Shown here: positions 6,811 to 44,240 of the stretch, in pieces
How the letters are laid out: each line of letters begins with the position of its first letter
How positions within the stretch are numbered: the first letter of the stretch is position 1
From: an uncultured Gammaproteobacteria bacterium
GTDB lineage: Bacteria; Patescibacteriota; Microgenomatia; Levybacterales; UBA12049
Direction of reading: 5' to 3'
Length of the DNA: 64,000 nucleotides
Assembly: GCA_964515545.1 (NCBI GenBank)
Contig: CAZERI010000001.1
Span: 2,803-66,802 of the forward strand
Program-made: the position numbers and the translations under genes
Notes under the pieces: model-generated
Told to the model about the DNA's origin: nothing
Databases searched by the model: none
What the model saw: the letters and a program-made list of their open reading frames with translations, nothing else

Positions 6811-7968
6811 TTAATAATTTTCTCCGCCATTTGTGATAAGGATGTCGTGAGGATGTGACTCAGTGAGTGAGGCTTGAGTGATTTGGATAAACCTCGCTTT
6901 TTCCCAAAGCTCTGGAATCGTTTTGGCTCCCACATAGTACATACCTGATTTAATGCCTCCTACTGACTGGTCGACTAAATCCTTCACTGTACCTTTAACA
7001 GGAACCAGACCTTCGACTCCTTCTGCAACAAGTACACGATCTTTGTAATAACTTTTACCATGGAACTCATCTTCTGATTTAATTTTCGCTCCTTGTTTCA
7101 TAGCAGCAATTGAACCCATTCCTCGATATTCCTTGAATTTATACTCTTCTTTATCCGTGAGAATACTCTGGAATCGATGGGGAACTTGGGAGCGGGTAAG
7201 TGTATGTACCTTACCTGGTGACTCCAATGCAGATGCAAAAAATGATCCCATCATGACACAGCTTGCTCCAGTTGCTAAAGCTTTTACCATATCACCTGAA
7301 TACTTAATTCCGCCATCTGCCATAACGGGAATTCCATATTCCTTAGCTGCTCTCACTGTTTCTTGAAGTGCGGTAATTTGGGGTACTCCCATACCTGAGA
7401 TTACTCGCGTAGTACAGATAGCCCCAGGACCCATACCAACTCTTAGTCCATCAGCTCCTGCTTCAATGAGAGCTTTTGCTCCATCAAAGGTTGCCACACT
7501 TCCTGCTATCACCTGAAGGGAAGGGAAGTGAGATTTAATGTAGGTAAGAGTTGCGACGACATTGTCTGCATATCCATGGGCAGAATCAACTACAACAACA
7601 TCGACTCCTTCTGCAACAAGTGCTTCAACTCGCTCCTCAAAACCTTTATTTGCTCCTACTGCTGCACCTACGAGAAGTGCTTGCCCTGAGCTTGCTGGGT
7701 GGGCCTTTACTTTAGCTACCTCGTGAGCCTGATCAGAGACAGTAAGATTACGATGGATAATACCAATTCCGCCTAATTCAGCTAAGGCTATTGCTAACTC
7801 TGATTCAGTCACAGTATCCATAGGACTTGAAACAAAAGGGGAGTGGAGAAGTATTGACTGGGTGAGTGAGGTCTCTAAATTAATATCCCCTCGCGAAAAA
7901 TCACTAAATCCTGGAAGGAGGAGAACATCATCAAAGGTGAGGGCTTGAGGAAATTTTTGTGGGTCCAT
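6811..7968 (-). CDS. IMP dehydrogenase/GMP reductase family protein (CBS-less GuaB-like)
   Basis: [16 protein letters not shown] and catalytic-loop [21 protein letters not shown]. At 385 aa it lacks the CBS pair of canonical IMPDH. It sits in the guaA-purA cluster. Confidence 0.85.
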
Positions 7969-8296: not shown

Positions 8297-8370
8297 TAGC
8301 AGGAGTGGGGATCGAACCCACGACCTCGGCGTTATGAATGCCGTGCTCTAACCGACTGAGCCATCCTGCC
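8297..8370 (-). tRNA. tRNA-Met (CAT); elongator Met or Ile2-lysidine type
   Basis: Reverse complement GGCAGGATGGCTCAGTCGGTTAGAGCACGGCATTCATAACGCCGAGGTCGTGGGTTCGATCCCCACTCCTGCTA. Cloverleaf with anticodon loop TTCATAA and T-loop TTCGATC. Confidence 0.85.
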
Positions 8371-8577
8371 TTACTTCCCTTTTACGGGATTTAGCCTCAC
8401 AATTATAACAGTTTGACCAGCTTCAAGGCAAATGATATAATCTATTCTCCTCTAAATAGCTGTGCGCCGTCGCGCTGACGCAGTGTTACTGCGATAGCAC
8501 ATCCTTTAAGGGAAGATCGTTGGGAAAAACCCTGTCTGCCGACAGGCAGGCGTAGGTTTTGTCCCAAACGTTAGTAC

Positions 8578-8643
8578 GCGGGGTAGTGTAAGGTGCACGC
8601 GAGGCTCATAATCTTGCAGTCCTGGTTCGATCCTGGCCCCGCA
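8578..8643 (+). ncRNA. tRNA-like element with CAT anticodon loop but aberrant T-arm; part of a larger structured RNA candidate (about 8455..8646)
   Basis: GCGGGGT...GCCCCGCA forms a 7-bp acceptor helix. Loop CTCATAA is flanked by a CGAGG/TCTTG stem. GGTTCGATCC is T-loop-like, but the flanking CCTGG/CCTGG are direct, not inverted, so no T-stem forms. Only 66 nt. Upstream, TTGGGAAAAACC...GGTTTTGTCCCAA make a long-range helix enclosing the CCTGTC/GACAGG hairpin. Confidence 0.3.
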
Positions 8644-8650
8644 ACACAGT

Positions 8651-8684
8651 AGAAGATGACACCAAATTGGTGTCATCTTCTTTA
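8651..8684 (+). terminator. intrinsic terminator-like hairpin (13-bp perfect stem), possibly bidirectional
   Basis: AGAAGATGACACC-AAATT-GGTGTCATCTTCT followed by TT. It lies between the structured RNA (+) and the stop of the ftsB-like gene (-). Confidence 0.45.
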
Positions 8685-8687
8685 GAA

Positions 8688-9032
8688 TCAAAAGAAGAGA
8701 TTCCACCATTGTTGCCAGATAGGAATTACAATCTCCTTGGGAGATGATTTCTTTTGCTCTGAGTCAGAGGGTGTATTACCCATAATGACGACTTTCTCCC
8801 CTGGCTTAACCATAAATAATTTGTTTCTTGCTTCTTCTTCCACAAATTCAGTCCGCTTTACCCGATCAAGCTGATCTTGCAGCTTCTGATTCTCATTTTT
8901 TTCCTGCTGAAGTTCCTTTTGAGCCTCCCCTATGAGATCATGCTTTTGCCAAAGACTAAAAATTGAACGGATTAGGTTATTAATAATAAAGAGTGAAATG
9001 ATGAGTATGAGTAAATAAACTACCTTTTTCAT
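8688..9032 (-). CDS. ftsB: cell division protein FtsB/DivIC family (septum formation initiator)
   Basis: N-terminal TM (LLILIISLFIINNLI), a coiled coil rich in Q/E/K, then EEEARNKLFMVKPGEKVV matching the FtsB C-terminal signature. Confidence 0.7.
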   Translation of the reverse strand: MKKVVYLLILIISLFIINNLIRSIFSLWQKHDLIGEAQKELQQEKNENQKLQDQLDRVKRTEFVEEEARNKLFMVKPGEKVVIMGNTPSDSEQKKSSPKEIVIPIWQQWWNLFF

Positions 9033-9126
9033 TTTTCCTGTTATGACAAACTAATCGATGGATTTTCTACTGTCATTCTTCACTTGACTACTTGCAAATG
9101 AGCTGATATTATGGGATAATTATTCC

Positions 9127-9987
9127 ATGCAACCGACAAAAGTTCGTGACGCCCACCAAAAATTTATTGAATTCCTCAAAGGAAAGAAGCATTCCAGTAG
9201 TACTATTCTAGCATACGGTAAGGACATCGAGCAGTTAGCTTCATTTCTCGAGGAAATCGACAAACATCATGTTAGTGATGTTTCATCGGGTGACTTACAG
9301 GCATTCCTTGCTAAAATGTCTGAGCAGGGTTATACACCTAAATCATTATCAAGAAAGCTCAACTCTACCCGAACATTTTATAGGTTTTTAAAAGTCAATG
9401 AAATGATAACTGACGATCCTTCCCTCCTTGTCTCTCACCCACGCTACGAGTTGGCTCCGCCTCGTATCCTTAAACCTACCGAATATCGTGCGCTTCGCGA
9501 TGCTGCACGTCATGATGCGAGAATGTTTGCTATTATTGAGCTTCTTCTTCAGACTGGTATTAGAATTGGCGAGTTAGCAGAACTACGACTTTCTGATATT
9601 CAAGGTGATGAACTCAAAATCCGTCCTTATGAGAAGCACGAAGAACGCCTTGTTCCCCTTAACCGACCTGGTAAAGAAGCACTTAACAGTTACCTTAAAT
9701 TACGTCCTCAAGTAACTGATGACCATGTCTTTATTACTAAATCTGGTAAGCCATTCCTCGTCCGTAATATTCGTACTGCAATCGAGCGATACTTCCGTAT
9801 CGCTGAGATCGAAAATGCTAAGGTAAATGATCTTCGTCATACCTTCGTAGCACATCATTTAAAACATGGAGTATCTTTAGTACTCCTTTCTAAAATTCTT
9901 GGACACAAAAGAATCTCAACTACTGAAAGATACTTGGAATACGTCAAAGATCGTGCTAAAGACACTTCTTCCCTCTCCGAACTCTAA
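9127..9987 (+). CDS. xerC: tyrosine site-specific recombinase, XerC/XerD family
   Basis: Catalytic signature LRHTFVAHHL (R-H-x-x-R box region) and LGHKRISTTERYLEY (the H-x-x-x-TT-x-x-Y Tyr nucleophile). N-terminal core-binding domain. Confidence 0.85.
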   Translation: MQPTKVRDAHQKFIEFLKGKKHSSSTILAYGKDIEQLASFLEEIDKHHVSDVSSGDLQAFLAKMSEQGYTPKSLSRKLNSTRTFYRFLKVNEMITDDPSLLVSHPRYELAPPRILKPTEYRALRDAARHDARMFAIIELLLQTGIRIGELAELRLSDIQGDELKIRPYEKHEERLVPLNRPGKEALNSYLKLRPQVTDDHVFITKSGKPFLVRNIRTAIERYFRIAEIENAKVNDLRHTFVAHHLKHGVSLVLLSKILGHKRISTTERYLEYVKDRAKDTSSLSEL

Positions 9988-10034
9988 TACTTCCTTCATT
10001 TAGCTTGTTTTTTCTGGTACAATCGCAATACTTA

Positions 10035-10106
10035 GGGTGTGTAGCTCAGTGGTAGAGCGCGTCTCTTATAAAGCCGATGTCCTTGGTTCGATCCCAAGCA
10101 CACCCA
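10035..10106 (+). tRNA. tRNA with anticodon UAU (tRNA-Ile reading AUA) by my reading
   Basis: GGGTGTGTAGCTCAGTGGTAGAGCGCGTCTCTTATAAAGCCGATGTCCTTGGTTCGATCCCAAGCACACCCA. Acceptor GGGTGTG/CACACCC, T-arm CTTGG-TTCGATC-CCAAG, anticodon loop CTTATAA. The anticodon stem has one T-C mismatch. Confidence 0.7.
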
Positions 10107-10107
10107 C

Positions 10108-12465
10108 CTATAATCTTGCTCTTTCGGAGATTTCTGCTTCGACTACTTGGACATTACGTCCATACTTCAGACGAGACAATTCTTTAACCAGCTCTGCCAC
10201 CCGCGGATCCTTCTGGGCTGCTTCAGCTGCAATGTCTTTAGTCGTATCAAGCGAGAATGGTGGTACAGGCTCTCCTCCAACAATTGTTCTCATATAGGCA
10301 TTGAAGCGATCAATATTAATAAGATCTGCCTCGCCGAAGATAGGCTGGAATTCATGAGCTAGGTAATTTGCATCTGTCACACCGACTCTAAATGAGGCTA
10401 TTGTTCCAACATTTCCAAAGATAGCATTCTTAACTTCCTCCTCCATCTGGCCTACGAACTGATTGGCAACGATTAAATTAAGGCGATACTTACGAGCCTC
10501 GGACAGAATCTGGGCGAAATCAGGCGTTGCGAAATTCTGAAATTCGTCTACATAAAGGAAAAAGTCCTTACGGTCTTCCATCGGCATATCCTGCCTACTC
10601 ATCGCAGCAACCAAGATTTTAGGAACTAGCACAAGTCCCAAAAAGCTGGAATTCTCTTCCCCAATTTTCCCTTTGGAAAGGTTAATAAGCAAAATCTTTT
10701 TTGTATCCATTGCTTCTCTGAAATTGAATGCACTCTCAGACTGGCCAATGATATTTCGGATCATTTTATTAGTAACGAACCGGCCAAACTTCGAGACGAT
10801 ATAATCAAGCACTTCTGATTTATGGAAATCTGAAGTCTGGGCAATCTGATCTGTCCAGTAACGCCTGATAACGGGATCTTCAACGCGGGGCAAGAGTTCT
10901 TGAACGAAGTTCTGATCAGTCAGAGCACGGACAACCTCCATAAAAGTAGCTCCTGGCTGATACATACAGGTTAGCATCGCATTACGCACTGCATGCTCAA
11001 AACGGGGACCGATAATTCCTGTCTTATTAGGGTCAAACAGCTTATACATCAGCCCTATCACTGAGGTAACAACCAAATGCTTCTGCTGCTCACTATGTGC
11101 TTCAAGCATATTAAAGCCTAAAGGCTGATCAAGATCTGATGGATCAAAAAGGATGACGTCCTCTGCTCTTTCAGGTGGCATAAGTTGAAGAATATCCTCG
11201 ATTAAGTCACCATGCGGATCAATTACGGCTAATCCTTGGCCATTTTTTATATCTTGGGTGATCATTTGTTTGAGAAATTCTGACTTTCCCGTACCTGTCT
11301 TGCCGATAATATACATATGCCTCTGTCTGTCTGAAGGACTGATAAAGACCGGCTTAGTCAAACCCCTAAAGACACTCTTCCCTAAATACAGTCCCTCAGT
11401 CGGAAGATTAGCAGGAGCCGGAGCTCTCTTTGAATTTACCCAATGAATTCCCGGAGTCTGAACACTCTTATTAGGGAAATGAAAGATAGTTGCCAGTTCA
11501 TCACTGGAGAGAACCGAAGTCTGCCCTCGCAGTGGAAAGTAACGATAAATAAAATCTGTGACAAAAAGGCCTTTAAACCAATGCCTGTTTTTATAAAATT
11601 TATTTACACCAGCATATTGGCCAAATGCATTAACCATATTGGTTAAATGCGCCTCCGCTGCTTCTTTTGTGCTTGAGGAAACGACGATACGGATTACTGT
11701 ATGGAAGCCAGGCTTACTCAACTTATTCTCAATCGCTTCTAATTCTTTTGCGTCTGAGGCATACGTTGCTTTTTCTGGATTGGACTCTGTTTTCTTTGTA
11801 TGAGAAAGGTATTCTCTCCCTTCGTGTTTCCAATGATTTCCAGCAGGTTCAATAAGCATTTGAATCGCAGCTCCCTCTCCTTCCCCCATCTTGGCAAGAA
11901 TTGAAGTTAAAGAGGCCATCCCATCAACTGCCAAATCTTTAAAAACCCGAATAGGCTTATACTCGCTTTCTTTAAGAGCCAATGAGGCAAAAGCCACCTT
12001 ACCTGTCTCAGAGAAGATATTGTACTCCCCTGCTATGGTATTGCCATCTTTTTGCTTGGCTGCCGGATCATTAACCTGAACAATTTCTGCATCGGGATAT
12101 GCTCCATTAATCTGTTTTTCCACAAAGTCCCTGATAGAGGCTGGAACATTGATATAAAATCTAATATCCCCCGGCATTCCGACGACCTCAAATGAAAGAT
12201 GAGTCTGATGCTTAAAATACTCTCGCTTCTTACTTTTATGGAGAGCTGCTAAACCGGCAAAAAGTTGTTCCGCTGCATCAATCTTAATTTCATTGTCCCG
12301 AGGTAGAGAAACCTGCAGAAGTACTGACGTTACAGAAATTTTCTCTCTATCTTTATTCCGAATCCATATAGTAAATACCTTAAAAAAACCAATACAAAAA
12401 AGAACTGTAAAGATAGTCCCAAAGACGATACTCATAAAAGCTGTTAATAATGATTGTGTATCCAT
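10108..12465 (-). CDS. type IV secretion coupling protein (VirD4/TraG/TraD-like T4CP ATPase)
   Basis: N-terminal TM segments, Walker A GKTGTGKS, DPHGD and Walker B VDEFQNF. Overall TraG/TrwB-like architecture, 785 aa. Its stop abuts the tRNA at 10106. Confidence 0.85.
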   Translation of the reverse strand: MDTQSLLTAFMSIVFGTIFTVLFCIGFFKVFTIWIRNKDREKISVTSVLLQVSLPRDNEIKIDAAEQLFAGLAALHKSKKREYFKHQTHLSFEVVGMPGDIRFYINVPASIRDFVEKQINGAYPDAEIVQVNDPAAKQKDGNTIAGEYNIFSETGKVAFASLALKESEYKPIRVFKDLAVDGMASLTSILAKMGEGEGAAIQMLIEPAGNHWKHEGREYLSHTKKTESNPEKATYASDAKELEAIENKLSKPGFHTVIRIVVSSSTKEAAEAHLTNMVNAFGQYAGVNKFYKNRHWFKGLFVTDFIYRYFPLRGQTSVLSSDELATIFHFPNKSVQTPGIHWVNSKRAPAPANLPTEGLYLGKSVFRGLTKPVFISPSDRQRHMYIIGKTGTGKSEFLKQMITQDIKNGQGLAVIDPHGDLIEDILQLMPPERAEDVILFDPSDLDQPLGFNMLEAHSEQQKHLVVTSVIGLMYKLFDPNKTGIIGPRFEHAVRNAMLTCMYQPGATFMEVVRALTDQNFVQELLPRVEDPVIRRYWTDQIAQTSDFHKSEVLDYIVSKFGRFVTNKMIRNIIGQSESAFNFREAMDTKKILLINLSKGKIGEENSSFLGLVLVPKILVAAMSRQDMPMEDRKDFFLYVDEFQNFATPDFAQILSEARKYRLNLIVANQFVGQMEEEVKNAIFGNVGTIASFRVGVTDANYLAHEFQPIFGEADLINIDRFNAYMRTIVGGEPVPPFSLDTTKDIAAEAAQKDPRVAELVKELSRLKYGRNVQVVEAEISERARL

Positions 12466-12467
12466 AC

Positions 12468-12992
12468 TTATTTAGCTATTCCTTGAATTTTCTTGAGAAG
12501 ATACGCTGTGAGCGCTGCCAGCCAGTGCTTGGACTCAGTGATACTAGTCTTTTTTTCGATCTCCTTTGCCTCCAGAGGTGTGTAAGGGAGCTGAACTGTC
12601 GGCTGAGTGGGTATCGTAAGAGGTGTTGCTTCTTTCGCATGCTGGATACCGACTGCTTGATGCTCCTGAGTTAATTGGGGCTGTTCTTTGTTAGGAGCTA
12701 CTTCTACCCCAGCCTCTGCCACCTCCGGAGGAATTTGAGGCGTTACTTCACTCGGTCGGACATATTCAGAAACTGGAGCTTGCAGGATAGGCCCTGCCTC
12801 TTTATGCGGTCCGCTTATCGGATTTTGGGGCTGAGCTATTGGCTTTTGAGCAAATGGCGGAGTACTAGAGGGAACTTTTGGCTCACTCATTAAATTAGGA
12901 TCCATCGTCAACGGCTGCTGAGACACAGGAACAGGCGGAGGAGGAGCCACTTGAGAGGAGGTCTGGGCTGAAGGCTGCTGGGAATTATCCAT
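12468..12992 (-). CDS. Pro/Gln-rich hypothetical protein, translationally coupled to the T4CP gene
   Basis: Low-complexity APPPPVPVSQQP region. Its stop is 2 nt before the T4CP start codon, so they share an operon. Confidence 0.45.
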   Translation of the reverse strand: MDNSQQPSAQTSSQVAPPPPVPVSQQPLTMDPNLMSEPKVPSSTPPFAQKPIAQPQNPISGPHKEAGPILQAPVSEYVRPSEVTPQIPPEVAEAGVEVAPNKEQPQLTQEHQAVGIQHAKEATPLTIPTQPTVQLPYTPLEAKEIEKKTSITESKHWLAALTAYLLKKIQGIAK

Positions 12993-13051: not shown

Positions 13052-13213
13052 CTATTTTTTATATCTATCATCAGGTGAATTACCATAGGGGCAATTCTTA
13101 CACATACTGCCACAGCAGTATCCCCTCTTCAGATGATACTCTCTGGTAAAAACAATCTTCCCATTTTGATCAACTGAGAAATCTTCATTTTCTTTTGGTA
13201 CACTATCGCTCAT
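13052..13213 (-). CDS. small Cys-rich protein (53 aa), hypothetical
   Basis: Manual translation: MSDSVPKENEDFSVDQNGKIVFTREYHLKRGYCCGSMCKNCPYGNSPDDRYKK, with a YCCxxxCxxCPY cysteine cluster. It overlaps the upstream gene by 11 nt (coupled). It is below the ORF-track size cutoff. Confidence 0.3.
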   Translation of the reverse strand: MSDSVPKENEDFSVDQNGKIVFTREYHLKRGYCCGSMCKNCPYGNSPDDRYKK

Positions 13214-14576
13214 TTTTCTCCTCTGTCTCACGTGGACTGAAAAGGGTTACCAGAATTCCTTTTTCCAAAGATTTATTGGTAGTCTTTTTTTCTTCCTGAC
13301 TTTTGTCATTCATTTTTTCTTCCTGCATTTTTTTTAGACGCTTTTTACGCAACTCATCCTCTGATAACTCATCACAGCGAACAGAAGTACTGCACTTCAT
13401 ACATTGTTCTAAGTATCCCTCTCGAGGACGTTTATTGACATATCTACAGGTAGGACAGGCAAAAAAGAGAGAACCCTTAGAATCAGATTCTTCCTGATTC
13501 ATTGAGGAAAAATCTACCACACCAAAGGGTGAGTTATTACCAGATCTGACTGCAAAACCACTTGAGAAGCCACAACCTGTACTAACAGCTCTCACTGGCT
13601 GAGTACCTAGTACTGCCATCTGTGCCAGTGTTGCTATCCTATCCTGCTGCCAGTCAGCAAAGTATGTCCCGTCTTGGAGAGAATCTACTACTTCATCAGC
13701 TTTATTGACAATGGCGTTATATGCCTTTTTCAGAAGCTCATGGACTTTAGGCGCATTTTCAACGATAAGGAGGTATCGTTTGATGTAAGGCATACATTCT
13801 TGTTTAACAATTTCAAATGCTTCTTCACTCAAGCTGCTATCCAGATCCCGATATAAAAATTGCTGTAATTCTTCAAGAGAAGTAACAAAGCTCTCTCCCG
13901 GACGGAGTTCTACAGGATGAGATAGTAATTCAATATCATCAGGATTATCTGATAGTTCATAGTCCGGCTTGAGAAGCTTAATATTCTCTATAGTCTCCTC
14001 ACGTGTCAGGCCCGACATCGCACGGAGGACCACAATCTCGTTCTCTGACTGCTTATACTGCATATCAATAAAATTATGGCCATATATTGATTGCTCCTCA
14101 AGAGGTGTCTCCTCTGGCAGGTATTCATTACCAGGCCGTGAAGCACAGAACATTAATGTTCCAATAGGAGCCTGACTCATGGCATCCTGAATTTTTTGCT
14201 GGCCTACTATCTCAGCTTGTTCCCGTAATTGATCATGAGGCGATGATCCTTGTTCAAGGCGAGCTATCCTTCCTCGTTCATACCATTCCAAAAGAGGTTT
14301 CTTCTGGCTGCTATCGCGCATAATGCCGTCTTCATCAATAAGATCAATGCGTCGCGATACCGCTGCATTAAGCCTCTCACCAAGCATTGTAACGAGGTTA
14401 AATTCAATCGTTCCATTAAGCCCTTCTAAGCGTCTTGTATATTCATCAGGCTCGGCAAAACGGAGGTGCTGCAGTCTTGTATAAGCATCAACATCAAACT
14501 GAGGATCATACGTCAACTGCTTAGTCTCATGTAATGGCTGAAAGCCTTCAAGTGGTAGTACAAATTCTGCGCTCAT
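13203..14576 (-). CDS. uncharacterised cytoplasmic protein with C-terminal zinc ribbon; first gene downstream of a predicted cobalamin riboswitch
   Basis: 457 aa from the second Met (MSAEFVLPL...). No TM segment. C-terminal CPTCRYV...CMKCSTSVRC. An SD-containing hairpin plus U6 sits immediately 5' of this ATG. The longer ORF start at 14606 would lie inside the terminator hairpin. Confidence 0.65.
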   Translation of the reverse strand: MSAEFVLPLEGFQPLHETKQLTYDPQFDVDAYTRLQHLRFAEPDEYTRRLEGLNGTIEFNLVTMLGERLNAAVSRRIDLIDEDGIMRDSSQKKPLLEWYERGRIARLEQGSSPHDQLREQAEIVGQQKIQDAMSQAPIGTLMFCASRPGNEYLPEETPLEEQSIYGHNFIDMQYKQSENEIVVLRAMSGLTREETIENIKLLKPDYELSDNPDDIELLSHPVELRPGESFVTSLEELQQFLYRDLDSSLSEEAFEIVKQECMPYIKRYLLIVENAPKVHELLKKAYNAIVNKADEVVDSLQDGTYFADWQQDRIATLAQMAVLGTQPVRAVSTGCGFSSGFAVRSGNNSPFGVVDFSSMNQEESDSKGSLFFACPTCRYVNKRPREGYLEQCMKCSTSVRCDELSEDELRKKRLKKMQEEKMNDKSQEEKKTTNKSLEKGILVTLFSPRETEEKNER

Positions 14577-14757
14577 AAAAAAACTCCTCTTCCGAGAGGA
14601 GTACATGCTTGCACTTCTGCTCGGAAGTCCGCTCCGTCATCTGACGGGTGGCGGATTGGGGATCTGACTTTAGCCTTCGATTTACTCAGGCTATCCTGAG
14701 CGTGTCGAAGGATTACAGTTGCGGCACAGTACCGGAATTTCACCAGTTTCACCCGTT
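14577..14757 (-). promoter_or_regulatory. cobalamin (B12) riboswitch candidate with terminator/SD-sequestering expression platform
   Basis: Minus-strand read GGGTGAAACTGGTGAAATTCCGGTACTGTGCCGCAACTGTAA matches the conserved cobalamin-riboswitch core as I recall it (GGTGnAAnTCC...CCGCnACTGTnA). Then a B12-box-like AGTCAGA...CCGCC. It ends with CTCCTCT-CGGA-AGAGGAG plus TTTTTT directly followed by ATG. Confidence 0.55.
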
Positions 14758-14759
14758 AT

Positions 14760-15299
14760 TTATTGTTGTGACCAGATTGTCTCTTTTTTCTTTTCCTTAT
14801 GATTAACAAAACGAGCCATAGTAAAGAGGAGGTCTGACAAGCGATTAATGTATGTAACTACGTACTGATCGAGATCTGCCTGCTGCATTAATGCCACCAA
14901 TCTTCTTTCAGATCGTCTACAAACAGTTCGTGCCTGGTGGAGACTCGCACCTACTCTTCCTCCTCCTGGCAAAATAAAATTATGCAGCTCAGGCATCTGA
15001 GATGTCATAGCATCAATAGCTTTCTCAAACTCAGTGATACGCTCTTCCAGGCGTTTTATTGGCGGAGATGCAGGGTTGGCTAAATACGATCCTATATCAA
15101 ATAGATCGTGCTGAATTTTCTCAAGTTCTTTGGCTAATTTTATGTGTCTTGTCTCGATGGTAGCAACAACTATCCCTACTAAACTATTTAATTCATCAAT
15201 TGTGCCATAGGTATCTACTCTTAGATCTGACTTGAGGACGCGCTGTCCGCCAAATAATGATGTCTTACCACGATCTCCAGTACGAGTATAAATTGGCAT
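14760..15299 (-). CDS. ATP:cob(I)alamin adenosyltransferase, PduO-type
   Basis: N-terminal MPIYTRTGDRGKTSL is the TRTGDxGxTSL PduO/MMAB signature. About 180 aa. Confidence 0.85.
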   Translation of the reverse strand: MPIYTRTGDRGKTSLFGGQRVLKSDLRVDTYGTIDELNSLVGIVVATIETRHIKLAKELEKIQHDLFDIGSYLANPASPPIKRLEERITEFEKAIDAMTSQMPELHNFILPGGGRVGASLHQARTVCRRSERRLVALMQQADLDQYVVTYINRLSDLLFTMARFVNHKEKKKETIWSQQ

Positions 15300-15841
15300 T
15301 ATTGTCTCTTCGCCAACGCAGGCTGCCTCCTCCTAATAAGGTATTCCAGGAATTCAAATAATAAAATAAAACTTGTGGTATAAAGAAGATCTCCAGAAAT
15401 TGTATTTTTAAAAAACGGTAACGCCATAGCAAAACATTCCAAAAGCCCTTTAAGATCTTTTGAGTACATATGTCCTACCAGCCATACTCCAAAATTCGTA
15501 ATAAGAAAGAATAGAACTGAGGCCAGAAGGGTTACGCTAAGAATCCTTCCTGCTGTTTTCTGTTTACGTGCCCAAAGTCCTAATAGACCTGACAGAATAA
15601 AACTCCCATAGACGAAAAATATCGTATCGTGAAAGCCGAGGAAAAAATCTGAAATGATCATAATAGTAAGAGGAACAATAAGTGCATATTTTTTATCCAG
15701 GTATAATCCTCCAAAAAGAGCCAGGGCTGTAATTGGCGCGACATTGGGCATGTGAGGTAAAAGGCGCATCAAAACACCAAAAACAATTATGAAGGTGGGA
15801 AGGAATACTCTATCTCGCATTAGTAAGTCTCTATCCTCCAT
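15299..15841 (-). CDS. polytopic membrane protein, ECF-transporter S-component-like (cobalamin-related by context)
   Basis: 180 aa with 5-6 hydrophobic helices (FLPTFIIVFGVLMRLL...ITALALFGGLYL...). Its stop overlaps the PduO start. It shares an operon with the DUF4430 protein behind a B12 riboswitch. The functional call is inference. Confidence 0.5.
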   Translation of the reverse strand: MEDRDLLMRDRVFLPTFIIVFGVLMRLLPHMPNVAPITALALFGGLYLDKKYALIVPLTIMIISDFFLGFHDTIFFVYGSFILSGLLGLWARKQKTAGRILSVTLLASVLFFLITNFGVWLVGHMYSKDLKGLLECFAMALPFFKNTISGDLLYTTSFILLFEFLEYLIRRRQPALAKRQ

Positions 15842-16233
15842 TCAATCTGGTCACTATCCTTTGTCAGATAATCTGCCGGACCAACTTCTGCCATCTTACC
15901 ATTAACAAAAAATGACCAGTATTCTTTGTTACTCGCATCTGCCTTGCGTTTATTAATAGCTGTTACCAATCCTGTGGAATTCTGCTCTACTGATGTCTGC
16001 TGCTTTAATAATGTCAGCGCATCAACACCTTCCTTACCTGAATATCTAAAAATGTCTGCTGCAACTTTATCATGATTTTGCTGCAGTGTAGGGGTAGGAA
16101 CTCCTTGAGAAGATGTCACATGCTGACGGGACCATACCGCCCCGCCTACCATAATGACAAACAAAAACCCTATGACAAAGATAATGATAGGTGTCCTTTT
16201 AAAAGTCGGTATTCCTTTATTTTTTTCAGCCAT
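15820..16233 (-). CDS. DUF4430-type (transcobalamin-like, BtuG-like) B12-binding protein, membrane-anchored
   Basis: MAEKNKG..., one N-terminal TM, then GVDALTLLKQ...TGLVTAINKRKADASNKEYWSFFVNGKMAEVGPADYLTKDSDQIEWRIETY. This matches the DUF4430 pattern (ALxLL...fVtsI.G...YW.f.VNG...vG...y.lkdgD.I.W). Confidence 0.7.
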   Translation of the reverse strand: MAEKNKGIPTFKRTPIIIFVIGFLFVIMVGGAVWSRQHVTSSQGVPTPTLQQNHDKVAADIFRYSGKEGVDALTLLKQQTSVEQNSTGLVTAINKRKADASNKEYWSFFVNGKMAEVGPADYLTKDSDQIEWRIETY

Positions 16234-16437
16234 AAAAAATCCCTCTCTCCCGAGAAGGACGTACAAACGTTGTTTTCCTGTCTGGCGGAGCCAGACCTCG
16301 CTTCGCGAGGCTCGGGTGTTACTGAAATATTCGTTTTCTGTCTTTACAGTAGCGGCACTGAGAGGGATTTACACCCTACTTACCAAAATATTTCTCTGTT
16401 GTTTTTACACTATTTAGCCTTCTGTTACAAGAAGGAA
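16234..16437 (-). promoter_or_regulatory. cobalamin (B12) riboswitch candidate upstream of the DUF4430/S-component/PduO operon
   Basis: Minus-strand read TAGGGTGTAAATCCCTCTCAGTGCCGCTACTGTAAAG matches the same recalled core (GGTGnAAnTCC....CnGnnCCGCnACTGTnA). Downstream GGTCTGGCTCCGCCAGAC is a B12-box-like segment. It ends with CCTTCTC-GGGA-GAGAGGG hairpin plus ATTTTTT directly before ATG of the DUF4430 gene. Confidence 0.6.
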
Positions 16438-18906
16438 TTAGCACTCACTATAGCCACAGCCATAGCATTTCTTGCAACCTTCTTCGTAAGCAAAACTAGC
16501 AGCTCCACACTCAGGACAAATATCAAATAAATTAGTATTTGTCGTATTTGCCATTGTCTCAACAGGAACAGTTGCTGCAGCAAAACCTAACTGCTGACCA
16601 GCTACTTCTGGTTCATCAACTTTCGTCAGAAAATTTGCAGGCGTTGAGACAGGATGACCATTACCATTACTCACTCCATTCGCCTCCTCTGAGACAGACT
16701 CAGTAACGGACGCATCTGCCTGAATAGGAGTTACTGGCCTGTCCTCTACTTTGCCGTTCACTCTAAAATTTGCGTGCTTGGCGAGTACTTTTGCAACTGC
16801 ATCGGGAAGCGATCTAACTCTATTTTCTCCAAAGCCTACTGATCTAGCTCCACCGATACCTGTCAGCTCTGAAACAACTTCTCTCATACGCTCCCGAGCT
16901 GGTACTGGGCTATGAATCCGAAGAACAAAGGAGATCATACGGCCAAGAGCATCTGCCATTGCCATCACATCTGAACCTGCTTTTCCACCATTAACAAAGA
17001 CTTCAAAAGCATGATCCTTCTCATCATGATTGATCGTAACGTAGACATTACCGATAGGACTTTCTGCTTTATAGGTAGCTCCATGCAGAACTAATGGCCG
17101 TGAGATACGAGGCGTAGCAGGAGCAGGCACGACAGGAGTAACTTCCTTTACTTCTTCTTTCTTCTCAGGCAGGCGTTCTAGAACTCCCATACGTGACCCA
17201 TCCCGCATATAGGTAATGCCTTTAAGACCATAGTCATATGCCTTCATGTAGAGTTCTTTTACATCTTCAACTGTATGAGCTGTTGGAGCATTAACAGTCT
17301 TTGAGATTGAGGAGTCAATGTATTCCTGTGCGACAGCCTGAACTTTAACATGTTCTTCGGGTGTTAAGTCATTAGCTGAAACAAAATAATCTGGTCTTGC
17401 CTCTCCCTCATGCTCTTTTCTCCACTCATCAAAGAGAGGATGATACATAATTTCTTCTCCGCCTCTCCACTTACGTTTAAAGGTAAATTCATAAACAGGC
17501 TCAATACCTGAAGACACACCTGAGACAAGGGACGTCGTACCAGTTGGTGCAATAGTTAATAAGACTGCGTTACGAATCCCCTGATCTGCAATCTTTTTAC
17601 GAAGCTCTTTAGAAAGCTGCTTGATAAAGTAACCATTGAGGTATTTTTCCTTATCAAACATTGGGAAAGCGCCTTTCTCAGCTGCAAGATCAGAACTCGC
17701 ATCATAAGCACTATCACGAAGTGTCTTAAAGATCTTTTCAATAACAGGAAGAGATTTTTTAGATCCATAAGGGAGCTTCATCTTAATAAGAGCATCGCCA
17801 AGCCCCATGATGCCAAGACCCGTACGTCTAATATCTTTAGCGCATTTTTCATTTTCTTTAAAGAAATAATACGTCTGATCAATGACGTTATCAAGCATAC
17901 GCATTGCGACTTTTACGTCTTTACCAAAATTATCAAAGTCGAATTTCTCGTCTTTCACATATGCAGCTAAGTTCATAGCTCCTAGGTTACAAACAGCCCA
18001 CGCCCCGAGTGGCTGTTCCCCACAAGGATTGGTCGCAATGAGGCGTTCAAAATAGTTAGTATTGCTTCTCTTATTAGATCTCTCCATGAAGTGAAGTCCT
18101 GGCTCTGCACTTCTCCAAGCAGCAGTACAGATAAGGTCCCACAACTCCCGTGCTTTTACTGTCTTATAAACGACAACTTTTTTACCAAGAGCCTTCCATT
18201 TATCAATTTCTCCATCCCATTTCTCATCGTATTCAGGATCTGCAATATCAGGATAAACCAGATCCCAATCAGTATCTGCCTTAACGGCCTCCATAAATGC
18301 ATCAGAGATACAGACTGAGAGGTTGGCCCCATTAATCTTGCTAAGGTCTTCCTTAACAGTAATAAACTCCTCCACATCTGGATGCCAGTCCCAGAGCATA
18401 AGCATGGTAGCTCCCCGTCTACTTCCTCCCTGCTGAACAATGTCATGAGTTGCTACTGAAAAAAGTGTCGCCCAATTAACAGGACCCGAACTGGTTCCAT
18501 TTACTTTTTTAACGCGGGCTCCTTTGGGTCTGAGGGATGAGAGATTAAGGCCTACTCCTCCTGATCTTGCCTGAATCTCAACTAGTTGTCCCAAAGACTC
18601 TAAGATACCATGACGTGAGTCTTTAGGACTTGGAATTACAAAGCAGTTGAAGTACGTTACTTGATACTCTGTACCTGCCCCAGAAAGAATTCTGCCTGCA
18701 GGGACGAATTTAAAATCCTCCATGACACGATAGAATTCTTTTTGCCACTTCTTCTGATCAGTTTTCTTCTCTGTTGCAGCAATTCCTCTCGCAACACGTC
18801 TCCACATCTCTTCAGGAGTGCTTTCAATTCGCTCACCGTTTTTATCCTTCAAGGCATAGCGATCTAAAAATACTTTTTGTCTGATTCCGTCAAGTTGTAT
18901 AGCCAT
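16438..18906 (-). CDS. nrdJ: ribonucleotide reductase, class II (adenosylcobalamin-dependent)
   Basis: 822 aa. TNPCGEQPL active-site motif of class II RNR. C-terminal zinc ribbon CPECGAASFAYEEGCKKCYGCGYSEC. Confidence 0.93.
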   Translation of the reverse strand: MAIQLDGIRQKVFLDRYALKDKNGERIESTPEEMWRRVARGIAATEKKTDQKKWQKEFYRVMEDFKFVPAGRILSGAGTEYQVTYFNCFVIPSPKDSRHGILESLGQLVEIQARSGGVGLNLSSLRPKGARVKKVNGTSSGPVNWATLFSVATHDIVQQGGSRRGATMLMLWDWHPDVEEFITVKEDLSKINGANLSVCISDAFMEAVKADTDWDLVYPDIADPEYDEKWDGEIDKWKALGKKVVVYKTVKARELWDLICTAAWRSAEPGLHFMERSNKRSNTNYFERLIATNPCGEQPLGAWAVCNLGAMNLAAYVKDEKFDFDNFGKDVKVAMRMLDNVIDQTYYFFKENEKCAKDIRRTGLGIMGLGDALIKMKLPYGSKKSLPVIEKIFKTLRDSAYDASSDLAAEKGAFPMFDKEKYLNGYFIKQLSKELRKKIADQGIRNAVLLTIAPTGTTSLVSGVSSGIEPVYEFTFKRKWRGGEEIMYHPLFDEWRKEHEGEARPDYFVSANDLTPEEHVKVQAVAQEYIDSSISKTVNAPTAHTVEDVKELYMKAYDYGLKGITYMRDGSRMGVLERLPEKKEEVKEVTPVVPAPATPRISRPLVLHGATYKAESPIGNVYVTINHDEKDHAFEVFVNGGKAGSDVMAMADALGRMISFVLRIHSPVPARERMREVVSELTGIGGARSVGFGENRVRSLPDAVAKVLAKHANFRVNGKVEDRPVTPIQADASVTESVSEEANGVSNGNGHPVSTPANFLTKVDEPEVAGQQLGFAAATVPVETMANTTNTNLFDICPECGAASFAYEEGCKKCYGCGYSEC

Positions 18907-18937: not shown

Positions 18938-19387
18938 TTAATGTATTAACTTCTTTACTTCTTTTTCAAAGTCTTCAACATCTACAAAGCGTCTAAAGAC
19001 ACTCGAAAATCTAATATATGCAATCTTATTTGTCTTTTTTAAGTGATCTGCGACTAACTGCCCAATCCGCTCACTCTGAATTTCTGCTGTATCCTCCCCC
19101 CGCAGCTCATGGATAATATCAGTTAAGATTCTTTCTATCGTATCGAGTGAAACCGTTGTCTTCTCACAAGCGCGAATTAAACCTGCCTTTAATTTCTCTC
19201 TGTTGAACTGTTCTCTCCTGCCGTCTTTTTTTATGACGTGAAGATTAACAGTCTCTATACGCTCATACGTCGTAAATCTACGTTGACACTTATGACATGC
19301 TCGGCGTCTTCTAATCGCGTCCATGTCTTCGCTATCTCTAGTCTCTACTACTTCTGATTCCTGGCTTCCGCAATAGGGACAATGCAT
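18938..19387 (-). CDS. nrdR: transcriptional repressor NrdR
   Basis: MHCPYCGSQESEVVETRDSEDMDAIRRRRACHKCQRRFTTYE zinc ribbon plus ATP-cone. Confidence 0.95.
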   Translation of the reverse strand: MHCPYCGSQESEVVETRDSEDMDAIRRRRACHKCQRRFTTYERIETVNLHVIKKDGRREQFNREKLKAGLIRACEKTTVSLDTIERILTDIIHELRGEDTAEIQSERIGQLVADHLKKTNKIAYIRFSSVFRRFVDVEDFEKEVKKLIH

Positions 19388-39465: not shown

Positions 39466-39885
39466 GGGGATGAACTGATTCGACGAGATCTGTACTTTAA
39501 AAACTGCAAGCCGACATTGATTAGCTGTCGTAAAACATGATCAAAAAAATAAATGCTAAAAATAGCATTGAAGCTTTAAGAGCTGAGAAGGATGCGATTC
39601 TCGCAGAACTTCAATCTCTTACTGCTCCTCGCGCTTACGCTTTCGCAGCTTAAGAGCATATGAGGTGTCTTTCTGGTCTTTCTTAACGGGATCTTAAAGG
39701 CATAATATAAGTTGAGTGATGTCATAAAGTTTGGTTTGGCTTTGTGACTAATCTTAAGCAAACCTAGATGAAGTTATACCTGTTCGTTGGTTACGGCTTC
39801 ACCACACTTATGAACGGACTACGCTTGTAGATGTTTTTAATTTACTTTTTCGGACTCCGGATCACACCCGGACATCTCCACACCA
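39466..39885 (+). ncRNA. ssrA: tmRNA (SsrA)
   Basis: 5' GGGGATGAACTGATTCGACG consensus. Internal tag reading frame ...GCTCCTCGCGCTTACGCTTTCGCAGCTTAA (...APRAYAFAA*, stop at 39651-39653). 3' tRNA-like end with T-arm TCCGG-ATCACAC-CCGGA and acceptor CATCTCC pairing GGGGATG, then ACCA. Confidence 0.85.
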
Positions 39886-42182: not shown

Positions 42183-42270
42183 GGAGGGGTCGCATAGCTG
42201 GTCTAGTGCGCACGCTTGGAAAGCGTGTATGCCCGCAAGGGTATCGGGGGTTCGAATCCCCCCTCCTCCG
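42183..42270 (+). tRNA. tRNA-Ser (GGA)
   Basis: GGAGGGGTCGCATAGCTGGTCTAGTGCGCACGCTTGGAAAGCGTG + long variable arm + GGGGG-TTCGAAT-CCCCC + CTCCTCC-G. Anticodon loop TTGGAAA. Discriminator G. Confidence 0.85.
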
Positions 42271-42392
42271 CCTTCGGTCGCCAAAGTGACCTACGGCGGA
42301 CATAGTCCGCTTATAAAGTCGCGAAGGAGACTAATACCATATAAAAAAGACTCCATGTACATGGAGTCTTTTTTAATTTACCCATAAAAGCA

Positions 42393-42845
42393 TTACTTAC
42401 TAGTTGGTTCTACTTTTTTTGCCCCTGATTTGCTTGCTACCCTAATTTTCTTTGGTTCAGCTTTTTGGACTTTTTTGAATGTTAGTTTGAGAACACCATC
42501 TTCAAGCTCTGCTTTAGGCTCCTCATCACTTACAACTCCCTGAGGAAGACGGAAGGAATAATTGTAGGATGATGCCATTGAAGTCATGAAGTATCGTCTT
42601 TTATCTTTTTCCTCCTGACGATCCTCACTAGCTGCTGTAACGCGGACTACTCCTTCATCAATGGAGACGTCAACGTTATTTCCCGAAATACCAGGAAGTG
42701 CAGCTTCTGCAACGATTGATTCTTCAGTCTCATAAAGGTTGAGACCCTGCCCCATCATACGAGAAATACCAGGGAGAGTTGGGACGTCCCAATCATCATC
42801 AAGCATGGATTGAAGATTCCATGGATTCCAGCGGATTATTGCCAT
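42393..42845 (-). CDS. Hsp20/alpha-crystallin family small heat-shock protein
   Basis: MAIIRWNPWNLQSMLDDDW ... GVLKLTFKK. 150 aa. Confidence 0.9.
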   Translation of the reverse strand: MAIIRWNPWNLQSMLDDDWDVPTLPGISRMMGQGLNLYETEESIVAEAALPGISGNNVDVSIDEGVVRVTAASEDRQEEKDKRRYFMTSMASSYNYSFRLPQGVVSDEEPKAELEDGVLKLTFKKVQKAEPKKIRVASKSGAKKVEPTSK

Positions 42846-42937
42846 GTAGATTCACCTCCTTTAATCAAGTTTGACTTGATTAGCACTTTTATACCACGAG
42901 TGCTAATATCTTGTCAAGAGGCGCTCCGGACAAAGGC

Positions 42938-43028
42938 GGAGGAGACAGGATTCGAACCTGCGCGAGCCCTTTTAGAGGCTCAGAGGCTTAGCATGCCCCC
43001 GCAATGGACCAACTATGCGACTCCTCCC
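42938..43028 (-). tRNA. tRNA-Ser (GCU)
   Basis: Reverse complement GGAGGAGTCGCATAGTTGGTCCATTGCGGGGGCATGCTAAGCCTC + long variable arm + GCAGG-TTCGAAT-CCTGT + CTCCTCC-G. Anticodon loop ATGCTAA. Confidence 0.85.
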
Positions 43029-43037
43029 AAAAAACGT

Positions 43038-43109
43038 ACCTCTGGCGGGAATCGAACCCGCAGCTCAGGATCCGGAATCCCGTGGTTTATCCATTAGCCT
43101 ACAGAGGCG
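43038..43109 (-). tRNA. tRNA-Arg (CCG)
   Basis: Reverse complement GCCTCTGTAGGCTAATGGATAAACCACGGGATTCCGGATCCTGAGCTGCGGGTTCGATTCCCGCCAGAGGTA. Anticodon loop TTCCGGA. T-arm GCGGG-TTCGATT-CCCGC. Confidence 0.8.
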
Positions 43110-43138
43110 ATTCTCTATCTACAACTACTTTAACGAGG

Positions 43139-43222
43139 CGGAGGGAGGGAGATTTCCGACTCGCTTTGCTTCCTGGACTGCCTTGCCTATGGCTCGGCTT
43201 GCTTCTCATCTCCCTCCTCTCG
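43139..43222 (-). pseudogene. decayed tRNA-Ser-like remnant (partial duplicate of the adjacent tRNA-Ser 3' and 5' ends)
   Basis: GCGGAGGGAGGGAGATT (17 nt identical to the 3' end of tRNA-Ser(CGA)) followed by degenerate T-loop TCCGACTC, and ...CATCTCCCTCCTC resembling the 5' acceptor. No cloverleaf. Confidence 0.35.
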
Positions 43223-43231
43223 TTGTTTTGC

Positions 43232-43322
43232 GGAGGGAGGGAGATTCGAACTCCCGGTCTAGAAAAAGATCCAGACGGCGGTTTTCGAAACCGCTGCACT
43301 AAACCACTATGCGATCCCTCCC
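43232..43322 (-). tRNA. tRNA-Ser (CGA)
   Basis: Reverse complement GGAGGGATCGCATAGTGGTTTAGTGCAGCGGTTTCGAAAACCGC + long variable arm + GGGAG-TTCGAAT-CTCCC + TCCCTCC-G. Anticodon loop TTCGAAA. Confidence 0.85.
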
Positions 43323-43335
43323 ACTTTTTCTTAGT

Positions 43336-43409
43336 ACTCTCGAGAAGATTCGAACTTCCGACCTCAACGTCCGCAACGTTGCGCTCTATCCAACTGAGCT
43401 ACGAGAGCT
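43336..43409 (-). tRNA. tRNA-Arg, anticodon GCG by my reading (needs tRNAscan confirmation)
   Basis: Reverse complement GCTCTCGTAGCTCAGTTGGATAGAGCGCAACGTTGCGGACGTTGAGGTCGGAAGTTCGAATCTTCTCGAGAGTA. Perfect anticodon stem CAACG/CGTTG with loop TTGCGGA. Confidence 0.65.
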
Positions 43410-43472
43410 TATTAAGGCTAAAATAGTGTGTGTATTGTACCCAATATTATGATGTGAAGCAAATAACTATAG

Positions 43473-44066
43473 CTATAAACGATGCTCTAAGGGGAAATTC
43501 TTCTCAAGCCAGCTGGCTGATTTTTCCATAAAGGTAGGCTTAACATACTCCCTATAAGGAAGGAAGTGTAAAAGGACATCGCGAACTTGTTCCTGATGCA
43601 TATTCCCCAAGACAAGAGTCAACTCTCCAGGATACCACGCTTTGGTTCCGACGATCAGAGTAGTTACTCCATTTTGGGTCTTAAAATAAAAGTCATAAAG
43701 CTCTTGCCATAAGAAAAAATGGTCCTCTACCATGAGTCCCTCTGAAGTTACTTTATAGTGGAAGTCATGTGGCGCAACAGTATTAAGAGCATATACCAAA
43801 AATACAAGAGCCAGTACCAGTGCCATGAGGACGTATTGCGAAAAGAGGAAAAGAATAATCTCTAGCAAAAGCATAATGATTAAAATATTGAGGAAATACT
43901 CCCTATTCTTTTTCTGAAAAGGTCTTCCTGGCGCAGACCATGCTAGAAGAGTTTTTAATTCATAAAGGGAAGAGTCTTCAAAGTCTGGTGTGAAAGATCC
44001 AGTGGCATGTTCTGGGAGAAGCTCTTCATGGGGAGCTTCAATGAGTAGTTCTTTATTTGATTCCAT
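43473..44066 (-). CDS. membrane protein, probable bPH_2-type (TM hairpin plus PH-like domain), hypothetical
   Basis: Two TM helices (ILIIMLLLEIILFLF / LMALVLALVFLVYAL) followed by a soluble domain. Confidence 0.5.
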   Translation of the reverse strand: MESNKELLIEAPHEELLPEHATGSFTPDFEDSSLYELKTLLAWSAPGRPFQKKNREYFLNILIIMLLLEIILFLFSQYVLMALVLALVFLVYALNTVAPHDFHYKVTSEGLMVEDHFFLWQELYDFYFKTQNGVTTLIVGTKAWYPGELTLVLGNMHQEQVRDVLLHFLPYREYVKPTFMEKSASWLEKNFPLEHRL

Positions 44067-44150
44067 ACTTTTACTCTATAAGAGTAAAGCGTTCCGGTCA
44101 AGTCGTGCCTTGTTCTTGCTTTGGCTGATCTGATATACTTTGTATCCGTT

Positions 44151-44240
44151 GGAGAGGTCGCATAGTGGTCTAGTGCGGATGTCTTGAAAACATCTGAGGG
44201 TTCACGCCCTCCGCGAGTTCGAATCTCGCCCTCTCCGCCA
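44151..44240 (+). tRNA. tRNA-Ser (UGA), CCA encoded
   Basis: GGAGAGGTCGCATAGTGGTCTAGTGCGGATGTCTTGAAAACATC + long variable arm + GCGAG-TTCGAAT-CTCGC + CCTCTCC-G-CCA. Anticodon loop CTTGAAA. Confidence 0.85.

Follow-up and report, generated by a model that had tools for sequence, protein, structure and literature searches.

Within a 64,000-nucleotide stretch of DNA from an uncultured bacterium (positions 2,803 to 66,802 of contig CAZERI010000001.1, assembly GCA_964515545.1; hereafter the window), we identified a cobalamin (B12) riboswitch in the leader of an uncharacterized gene, here called X (13203-14576, minus strand). By its sequence and covariation, this leader (14759-14577, minus strand), named RS2, is a cobalamin riboswitch of the compact adenosylcobalamin (AdoCbl)-II/variant type that carries an extra hairpin in loop L6 and has no P1 helix, and we consider it close to certain that X is repressed by a genuine riboswitch. 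As an RNA, RS2 is ordinary. The novelty lies in its target, a large and unannotated family of proteins, without relatives among solved structures, that is found consistently in the B12 regulon of bacteria of the candidate phyla radiation (CPR) type. For our explanation as a whole, in which the riboswitch and a role for X in corrinoid handling are taken together, we would put the chances at even.

The leader of X is a cobalamin riboswitch

The original prediction had placed three elements in this leader: a cobalamin-riboswitch core, a B12-box-like segment and an expression-platform hairpin that carries the Shine-Dalgarno sequence (SD). All three were found. The core blocks GGTGAAATTCCGG (~14744-14732) and CCGCAACTGTAA (14723-14712) are present, as are GGUGAAAUUCCGG and GCCGCAACUGUAA; the B12-box-like segment AAAGTCAGATCCCC lies at 14670-14658; and the hairpin ACTCCTCT-CGGA-AGAGGAGT (14602-14583) holds the SD in its 3' arm and is followed by a T-run to 14577 and the ATG at 14576. 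For this copy, Rfam evidence taken by itself is borderline. A whole-window Rfam scan at the gathering threshold reported nothing at RS2, and a local scan with RF00174 yielded 31.1 bits (E=3e-6), 0.4 bit under the gathering threshold of 31.5. The absence of P1 and the lineage-specific hairpin inserted into the P6 loop account for the low Rfam scores of RS2, which falls between RF00174 and RF01689. The RF00174 alignment was mis-threaded, putting the B12 box on the inserted hairpin and extending into the 3' end of the upstream gene pduO, and it was rejected in favor of R1. This covariance model, derived from ten leaders of X homologs, comprises the terminator, the P13 hairpin and helices P2, P3, P5 and P6.

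R1 scored RS2 at 131.8 bits and the leaders in ~80 homologous loci (labeled L plus a number) at 20-145 bits. The curated model RF01689 (gathering threshold 36.5) was itself reached directly upstream of X homologs in L006 (36.5 bits), L029 (38.9 bits), L043 (50.4 bits) and L071 (38.6 bits), and was exceeded on further orthologous leaders in L060 (57.5 bits) and L012 (51.1 bits). In addition, the RS2 leader folds far more strongly than shuffled sequence (z=-5.6). The R1 score and the covariation described below were decisive in upholding the assignment to the cobalamin riboswitches.

The RS2 aptamer spans 14658-14759 on the minus strand, on which all of the following parts also lie, and has no conserved P1 helix. 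P2 pairs GGG (14754-14752) with CCC (14661-14659), P3 pairs ACUGG (14747-14743) with CCGGU (14735-14731), P5 and its loop L5 are formed by UGUGCCGCA (14728-14720), and P6 pairs CUG (14718-14716) with CAG (14666-14664) around a loop that holds the lineage-specific hairpin (~14712-14674); the B12-box-like stretch is modeled as AAAGUCAGAUCCCC (14670-14658). Between the aptamer core and P13 lies a variable spacer hairpin (UCCGC...GCGGA, 14628-14655), which differs in sequence among homologous leaders and is present in most of them, being absent from L008 and L009. The P13 hairpin CUUC-CGAGCA-GAAG (14614-14627; loop L13, 14623-14618) is followed by the hairpin ACUCCUCU-CGGA-AGAGGAGU, which acts in the model as both terminator and SD sequestor and with its U-run extends to the start codon (14577-14602). 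The hairpin proper occupies 14602-14583, with the SD as its 3' arm, and the U-run reaches 14577, directly before the AUG at 14576. At the other end, the pduO stop codon TAA (14762-14760) directly abuts position 14759, where the model match begins (0 nt between them), and lies 5 nt from the first paired base, G14754. A window-specific P1 candidate (ACGGGUG 14756-14750 with CACCCGU 14650-14644) was rejected since it is kept in no other leader.

Covariation was assessed in 70 distinct leaders from 62 sources. Aligned leaders share the invariant core blocks GGUGAA, CUGUGCCGCAACUGU and AGYCAGAKCCC. Standard pairs filled 96.9% of cells, compared with 78% in shuffles and 33-50% when partners were slid, and 25 of the 30 modeled pairs showed changes on both sides. 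The P3 and P5 helices were 96-100% paired, with double changes at every pair. A kissing loop between L5 and L13 characterizes cobalamin riboswitches, and here L5 (UGCCG, 14726-14722) and L13 (CG-A-GCA, 14623-14618) can form five pairs that were 100% paired across the set, including compensations from U-A to A-U in two leaders and from G-C to A-U in one. A third P5 pair, U60-G64, was considered and rejected: column 60 shows covariation with the final base of L13 but none with column 64, which assigns it to the kissing loop.

GC-rich palindromic hairpins (e.g., GACCUGCCUGCCGACAGGCAGG) are also inserted into the P3 loop or immediately ahead of the aptamer in L009 (5864-6004), L010 (922-1073) and L005 (~7790-7830). 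By comparison of these sequences, the peripheral loops of the riboswitch in X leaders appear to tolerate, or attract, short hairpin insertions.

The expression platform suggests a ligand-off attenuator

The platform contains two mutually exclusive pairings. The segment CUUCCGAG (14627-14620) consists of the 5' arm of P13 (4 nt) plus CGAG of L13, and it is complementary to the terminator apex CUCGGAAG (14596-14589). This antiterminator pairing covaries: at its four variable positions, 118 of 176 cells were paired over 44 distinct arm/apex combinations (for example, CUUUCGAG with CUCGAAAG), compared with 97.7 +/- 4.0 in shuffled sets, and none of 5000 shuffles reached the observed value. When the window platform was folded without constraints, the minimum was the antiterminator (-20.9 kcal/mol), in which the SD is free. 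When P13 was enforced and L13 blocked, mimicking the kissing-loop state, the terminator/SD sequestor formed instead (-17.5 kcal/mol). The switch structure is thus supported by covariation, and its direction, as modeled, would be default-on and ligand-off. Without ligand, CUUCCGAG would pair with CUCGGAAG, leaving the SD open so that X is made. With cobalamin bound, L5 would kiss L13 and lock the P13 hairpin; the terminator ACUCCUCU/AGAGGAGU and its U-run would then form, transcription would stop, the SD would be hidden, and both X and the small gene that follows it would be off. The gap of ~3.4 kcal/mol between the two states would be paid by ligand-stabilized kissing.

In the window and at many other loci, the aptamer starts directly 3' of the pduO stop codon. 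Because this leaves no room for an intergenic promoter, X is presumably expressed by read-through from nrdJ/pduO, and a promoter scan returned nothing above chance. RS2 is therefore most likely an attenuator inside the nrdJ/pduO transcription unit, and the leader would offer a clean natural case of a kissing-loop cobalamin switch used in this way. Past X, no terminator was evident between the small downstream gene and the next gene, which encodes a 174-residue protein, and the switch might therefore also influence expression of the type IV secretion system (T4SS) gene that lies beyond.

X is under cobalamin control across homologous loci

A word-indexed search recovered 13 close homologs of X with the same gene order and a 140-220 nt leader before X, and a word-indexed profile search added one further protein only. 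Scanning metagenomes provided 72 further X loci, and a genome collection provided two more, one of them a Candidatus Levybacteria metagenome-assembled genome (MAG). The X family appears to belong to ultra-small bacteria of the CPR/Microgenomates type. One locus, L012 (CAZOHC010000001.1), comes from a MAG labeled "uncultured Gammaproteobacteria" and reads nrdR, nrdJ, riboswitch, DUF4430, DUF6580, pduO, riboswitch, X, TrwB-like; the label is probably a misclassification because this CPR-type locus matches that of the Levybacteria MAG.

Using tblastn with the window proteins as queries, we found the order nrdR, nrdJ, (DUF4430, DUF6580), pduO, X, (DUF5522), Pro/Gln-rich gene, trwB-like gene in the great majority of loci, with X directly after pduO in most of them, down to 25% identity in X. 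We then searched 84 homologous loci, about a dozen of which are duplicate assemblies, with R1. A cobalamin riboswitch governs X in at least 76 of them: in 52 it lies directly upstream of X, and in 24 it precedes a tight pduO-X pair. In the first group, the switch stands only before X in 24 loci, before X on a contig or in a context without pduO in 11, and ahead of X as well as ahead of the pduO unit in 17; a single switch before a tight pduO-X pair accounts for 23 loci, or 24 with L083. Nine loci gave no R1 hit: in six the contig ends at the relevant side, L083 proved to be a filter artifact, and two are genuine exceptions. One of these exceptions, L011, has a palindromic hairpin and a terminator-like element in its leader (750-920) in place of the riboswitch. 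These results, drawn from sequence comparison, show X to be under cobalamin control essentially everywhere and bear out the expectation that its homologs would also be found behind cobalamin riboswitches.

At many loci, nrdJ and pduO are contiguous and have no switch, and X alone is regulated (e.g., L006, L013, L037, L041 and L042). Where X lies away from the nrdJ/pduO block, it keeps a cobalamin switch of its own (L070, L071, L085 and L088); in L071 and L088 it does so among six T4SS pilin genes plus PrgI-like, TraC-like and VirB4-like genes. The riboswitch is associated with nrdJ, pduO, DUF4430 and DUF6580 in the window cluster and likewise in most of the 84 loci.

X defines an unannotated protein family with a C-terminal zinc ribbon

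X encodes 457 residues, as predicted, with a C-terminal CxxC...CxxC pattern; a longer, 467-residue version of the open reading frame starts inside the terminator hairpin. The protein is cytoplasmic and has no ATPase or membrane features. Domain and fold checks, proposed originally, recognized no known domain or fold in it. In a profile search of 1.84 billion cluster representatives, E-value cutoffs of 1e-3, 1e-10 and 1e-30 left 598, 352 and 221 hits, respectively, and a literature search covering DUF6580, DUF5522 and riboswitches in the candidate phyla radiation found no paper describing the family.

Conserved motifs of X include LGER, RGRxYR, DQxRExAE, SxYxHNFxD, RRYSS, NKAD and TGCGxSGG, the last of which contains the invariant C335. 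Four C-terminal cysteines (C374, C377, C392 and C395) are invariant in 81 sequences, as are E67, G102, Y165, R185, C335 and G336. Nearly invariant positions are Y23, D28, T63, R68, R106, G110, D115, R118, E119, A121, E122, S146, G149, N168, F169, D171, L218, P221, Y268, A293, D294, V328, V353 and C401. A Lys/Glu-rich tail is restricted to close relatives. Against PDB sequences, the sole match of the X profile was that of its zinc ribbon to L37Ae/eL43 (E=0.011), and beta-hairpins are modeled at residues 371-382. With two invariant CxxC knuckles and a predicted ribbon fold, the C-terminus of X can be assigned to the zinc ribbons (rubredoxin-like 4-Cys knuckle), with Zn or Fe as the candidate metal. 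The modeled structure runs from a helical hairpin through a possibly PAS-like alpha/beta core and a helical bundle to a Gly-rich Cys loop and the 4-Cys ribbon, an architecture that appears to be new. X looks like an enzyme because many of its polar residues are invariant or nearly so (E67, R68, R106, D115, R118, E119, E122, Y165, D171, R185 and C335, plus the ribbon cysteines).

Several apparent leads within the sequence were rejected. The motif VRxVxTGCGxSGG resembles a glycyl-radical site; it is not RVxGY, its order relative to the zinc site is reversed, and no activase gene lies nearby. NKAD was dismissed as a GTPase G4 motif, there being no P-loop. The N-terminal "extra domains" of long X homologs such as L043 (4608-6092), P0003 and P0005 are gene-calling artifacts that represent translated riboswitch: gene callers often start the frame upstream of the switch, and the peptide ...CAATVKV... 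in L043, for example, is translated GCCGCAACUGU.

The window locus combines two cobalamin riboswitches with genes of B12 use

The same-strand order in the window is nrdR, nrdJ, RS1, DUF4430, DUF6580, pduO, RS2, X, DUF5522, all on the minus strand. By Pfam match, the cluster begins with the NrdR repressor (18938-19387) and NrdJ, a class II (B12-dependent) ribonucleotide reductase (RNR; 16438-18906) that is likely the consumer of AdoCbl. RS1, a second cobalamin riboswitch (16230-16394), is followed by a 137-residue DUF4430 protein (15820-16233; Pfam), a DUF6580 membrane protein (15299-15820; Pfam) and a 179-residue PduO-type ATP:cob(I)alamin adenosyltransferase (14760-15299; Pfam PF01923, E=2.6e-60). 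Transcobalamin and B12 binders of the intrinsic-factor type contain the DUF4430 domain (PMC4350170). The DUF6580 protein is a putative corrinoid transporter component and weakly matches (E=0.1) the CbrT chain of ECF-CbrT, an energy-coupling factor (ECF) transporter for B12 (PDB 6FNP; PMC5997447). X had been described as having no known B12 connection, which holds for its protein sequence but not for its context, behind pduO, a B12-dependent RNR and the second riboswitch. The proposal of a new B12-related function for X therefore stands as a candidate one, strengthened by the presence of nrdJ, pduO, DUF4430, DUF6580 and RS1. The hosts of X lack B12 synthesis and appear to depend on the vitamin for DNA precursors through NrdJ.

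The small gene after X (13052-13213) had been noted as an overlapping 53-residue open reading frame with a YCCxxxCxxCPY motif; it indeed carries YCCGSMCKNCPY, and it is a clear DUF5522 member (64.3 bits against a Pfam cutoff of 25; E=1e-17). It shares 11 nt with the 3' end of X and has its SD, GAGGAG, inside X, which makes translational coupling to X probable. Of 68 loci whose sequence continues far enough past X, 7 (5 of them distinct) have a same-strand DUF5522 gene after X, as does the window, and DUF5522 was found nowhere else within those 68 loci. On this distribution, DUF5522 would be an occasional accessory of X. Farther downstream, the region 10108-12992 (minus strand) encodes the 174-residue Pro/Gln-rich protein and a TrwB/VirD4-like type-IV-secretion ATPase (Pfam).

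Because RS1 is positioned between nrdJ and the DUF4430-DUF6580-pduO unit, the locus has two switches in series. RS1 matched RF01689 over 16324-16394 (36.1 bits against a gathering threshold of 36.5) and R1 over 16230-16389 (45.6 bits). It has a P1 helix and a platform of the same design as that of RS2, with a terminator at 16260-16239 and then the ATG at 16233. R1 also picked up RS1-type elements ahead of the DUF4430/pduO unit in every close-homolog locus. The L13 of RS1 carries a 30-nt double-hairpin insertion (16310-16281). An identical insert (CCUCGCGAAGCGAGG plus UCUGGCUCCGCCAGA) is present in the X leader of L014 (~160-190), in both cases between C and A of L13, and no other copy was found in the window or in 89 loci. 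This insert may represent a small mobile hairpin with site specificity, or else an added functional element of L13.

Elsewhere in the window, a tmRNA gene (39466-39883, plus strand; 123.9 bits) shows a long insertion in the alignment of its tag region. Clusters of tRNA genes lie at 42183-44237 and 8297-10106, and a XerC/D-type integrase gene (9127-9987) adjoins tRNAs.

A possible role for X in corrinoid handling

The cobalamin control of X, its usual position next to pduO, often as an operon partner, and its enzyme-like conservation led us to propose, tentatively and at somewhat less than even probability, that X carries out a corrinoid-handling step when AdoCbl is scarce. X would act in the cytoplasm as the enzyme or chaperone of a new family. 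Produced only at low AdoCbl, it would handle incoming corrinoid and work with the neighboring PduO to supply AdoCbl to NrdJ. Upper-ligand removal, reduction or hand-off, through the invariant cysteine and the 4-Cys module, are candidate roles. A broader statement comes nearer to an even chance while still falling just short of it: X may found a new B12-related enzyme class of CPR/Microgenomates-type bacteria with a fold outside solved structures, either a non-homologous functional counterpart of the CblC/CblD/cobalamin-reductase step upstream of PduO, or a B12-independent deoxynucleotide route, new to science, that would stand in for NrdJ under B12 starvation.

Several results weigh against the corrinoid-handling proposal. 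No biochemical function could be read from the sequence or fold of X. X and ten diverse homologs matched no Pfam family at E<=0.01 and no NCBIfam model at E<=1; X had no PADLOC or PHROGs match, no PDB sequence relative beyond the zinc ribbon and no PDB fold match; and no canonical B12-binding motif was evident. The conserved Arg, Asp and Glu residues would equally suit phosphate or metal chemistry. In L011 and L052, no switch was detectable before X even with filters off, which possibly reflects secondary loss of B12 control. Finally, the T4SS association of X (the TrwB-like ATPase in the window, the T4SS pilins in L071 and L088) is left unexplained by a pure corrinoid role.

This last association is among the grounds for the main rival, which we consider unlikely: X would be a B12-independent backup for deoxynucleotide supply when NrdJ stalls, for instance through DNA or deoxynucleosides imported by T4SS/competence-type machinery. 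Such a role would fit the many loci in which X alone is switched while nrdJ and pduO are not, the position of X at the border of the nrdJ block and the T4SS block, the riboswitch that X retains among T4SS pilin, VirB4-like and PrgI-like genes in L071 and L088, and a ComFC-like gene that follows X in L033. The zinc ribbon and conserved acidic and Arg residues are compatible with an enzyme acting on nucleic acids or nucleotides, and B12-independent isozymes are an established class of riboswitch target. However, X resembles no RNR, nuclease, kinase or deoxyribosyltransferase family or fold; the adjacency to T4SS genes may be gene order inherited in small genomes; and in ~24 loci a single switch precedes co-transcribed pduO and X, whose junctions are often short or overlapping, a pattern that points to a shared pathway.

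The same neighbors would accommodate a sensor or regulator whose PAS-like ligand module and zinc ribbon couple starvation for B12 or deoxynucleotides to the T4SS, replication or division, and the ribbon does resemble nucleic-acid-binding ribbons (L37Ae, E ~0.01). We regard this as improbable, given that X has no helix-turn-helix or other output domain and that its dense conservation, many charged residues and Gly-rich Cys loop look catalytic. Slightly more doubtful still is that X serves as a cytoplasmic accessory of corrinoid uptake, partnering DUF4430/DUF6580 or another transporter and not the adenosyltransferase. Transport genes are the commonest targets of B12 riboswitches, and DUF4430 and DUF6580 share the cluster here and at many loci, yet X is switched at many loci that lack both (e.g., L006, L008, L009, L013, L019 and L037) and lacks ATPase and membrane features. 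The remaining alternative removes B12 altogether, by taking the leader as a chance resemblance to an aptamer joined to an ordinary pduO terminator. The silence of the whole-window scan at RS2 and the RF00174 score just below threshold would be expected from it, but we give it almost no weight, and it is effectively refuted by the conservation of the whole leader in dozens of divergent loci, by abundant compensatory changes, which extend to every helix and to the kissing loop, and by the orthologous leaders that pass the RF01689 threshold. The corrinoid-handling proposal, like its rivals, concerns a family that can be tested directly, as the condition expected to induce it (low B12) and its likely partners (PduO and NrdJ) are in hand.

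Comparison with known systems

RS2 shares with the cobalamin riboswitches of Rfam clan CL00101 (RF00174, RF01689) the core formed by a GGUGAAAUUCC-type P3 loop, GCCGCAACUGU and the B12-box-like AGUCAGAUCCC, as well as the four-way helix arrangement, the L5-L13 kissing loop and the off-switch logic upstream of B12 genes. It differs in having no P1 and a lineage-specific L6 hairpin, which leave it between the two Rfam models, and in lying within an operon, directly 3' of the pduO stop codon. Moreover, a single hairpin in RS2 would be both terminator and SD sequestor, with a U-run that abuts the AUG. The DUF5522 partner is likewise a clear member of its Pfam family by its YCCxxxCxxCPY motif, and differs in being, as it appears, translationally coupled to X here; it follows X at a minority of loci.

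B12-trafficking proteins that work ahead of the PduO-type adenosyltransferase include human MMACHC/CblC and MMADHC/CblD and, in bacteria, PduS or flavodoxin-type cobalamin reductases. In genomic and regulatory terms, X is placed where such a protein would be expected, beside or co-transcribed with a PduO-type adenosyltransferase and, in our model, induced at low AdoCbl, and by analogy its invariant cysteine could serve thiol or Co-S chemistry. No profile match linked X to known B12-handling families in Pfam/NCBIfam (PduO/CobA/EutT, CblC/CblD, PduS, B12-binding Rossmann, CbiZ and others). X has no sequence or fold similarity to CblC/CblD or the cobalamin reductases; its possibly PAS-like core and 4-Cys ribbon are neither nitroreductase-like nor flavin/Fe-S, with no recognizable cofactor motif. 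Any likeness would be of role and not of ancestry. Gaps in vitamin metabolism have repeatedly come to light through riboswitch regulons. Should X process or deliver corrinoids, it would fill the step from uptake to adenosylation in minimal genomes and add a new fold to B12 trafficking.

B12 riboswitches also control B12-independent isozymes, such as metE, and nrdAB and nrdDG in organisms with NrdJ. The logic shared with X would be that of a gene beside a B12-dependent RNR that is expressed only when B12 is lacking. Unlike these isozymes, X is a protein of ~400 residues, is unrelated to any RNR class and is frequently co-transcribed with pduO. If X nevertheless proves to be a B12-independent bypass of this kind, it would change the view of nucleotide supply in episymbiotic bacteria.

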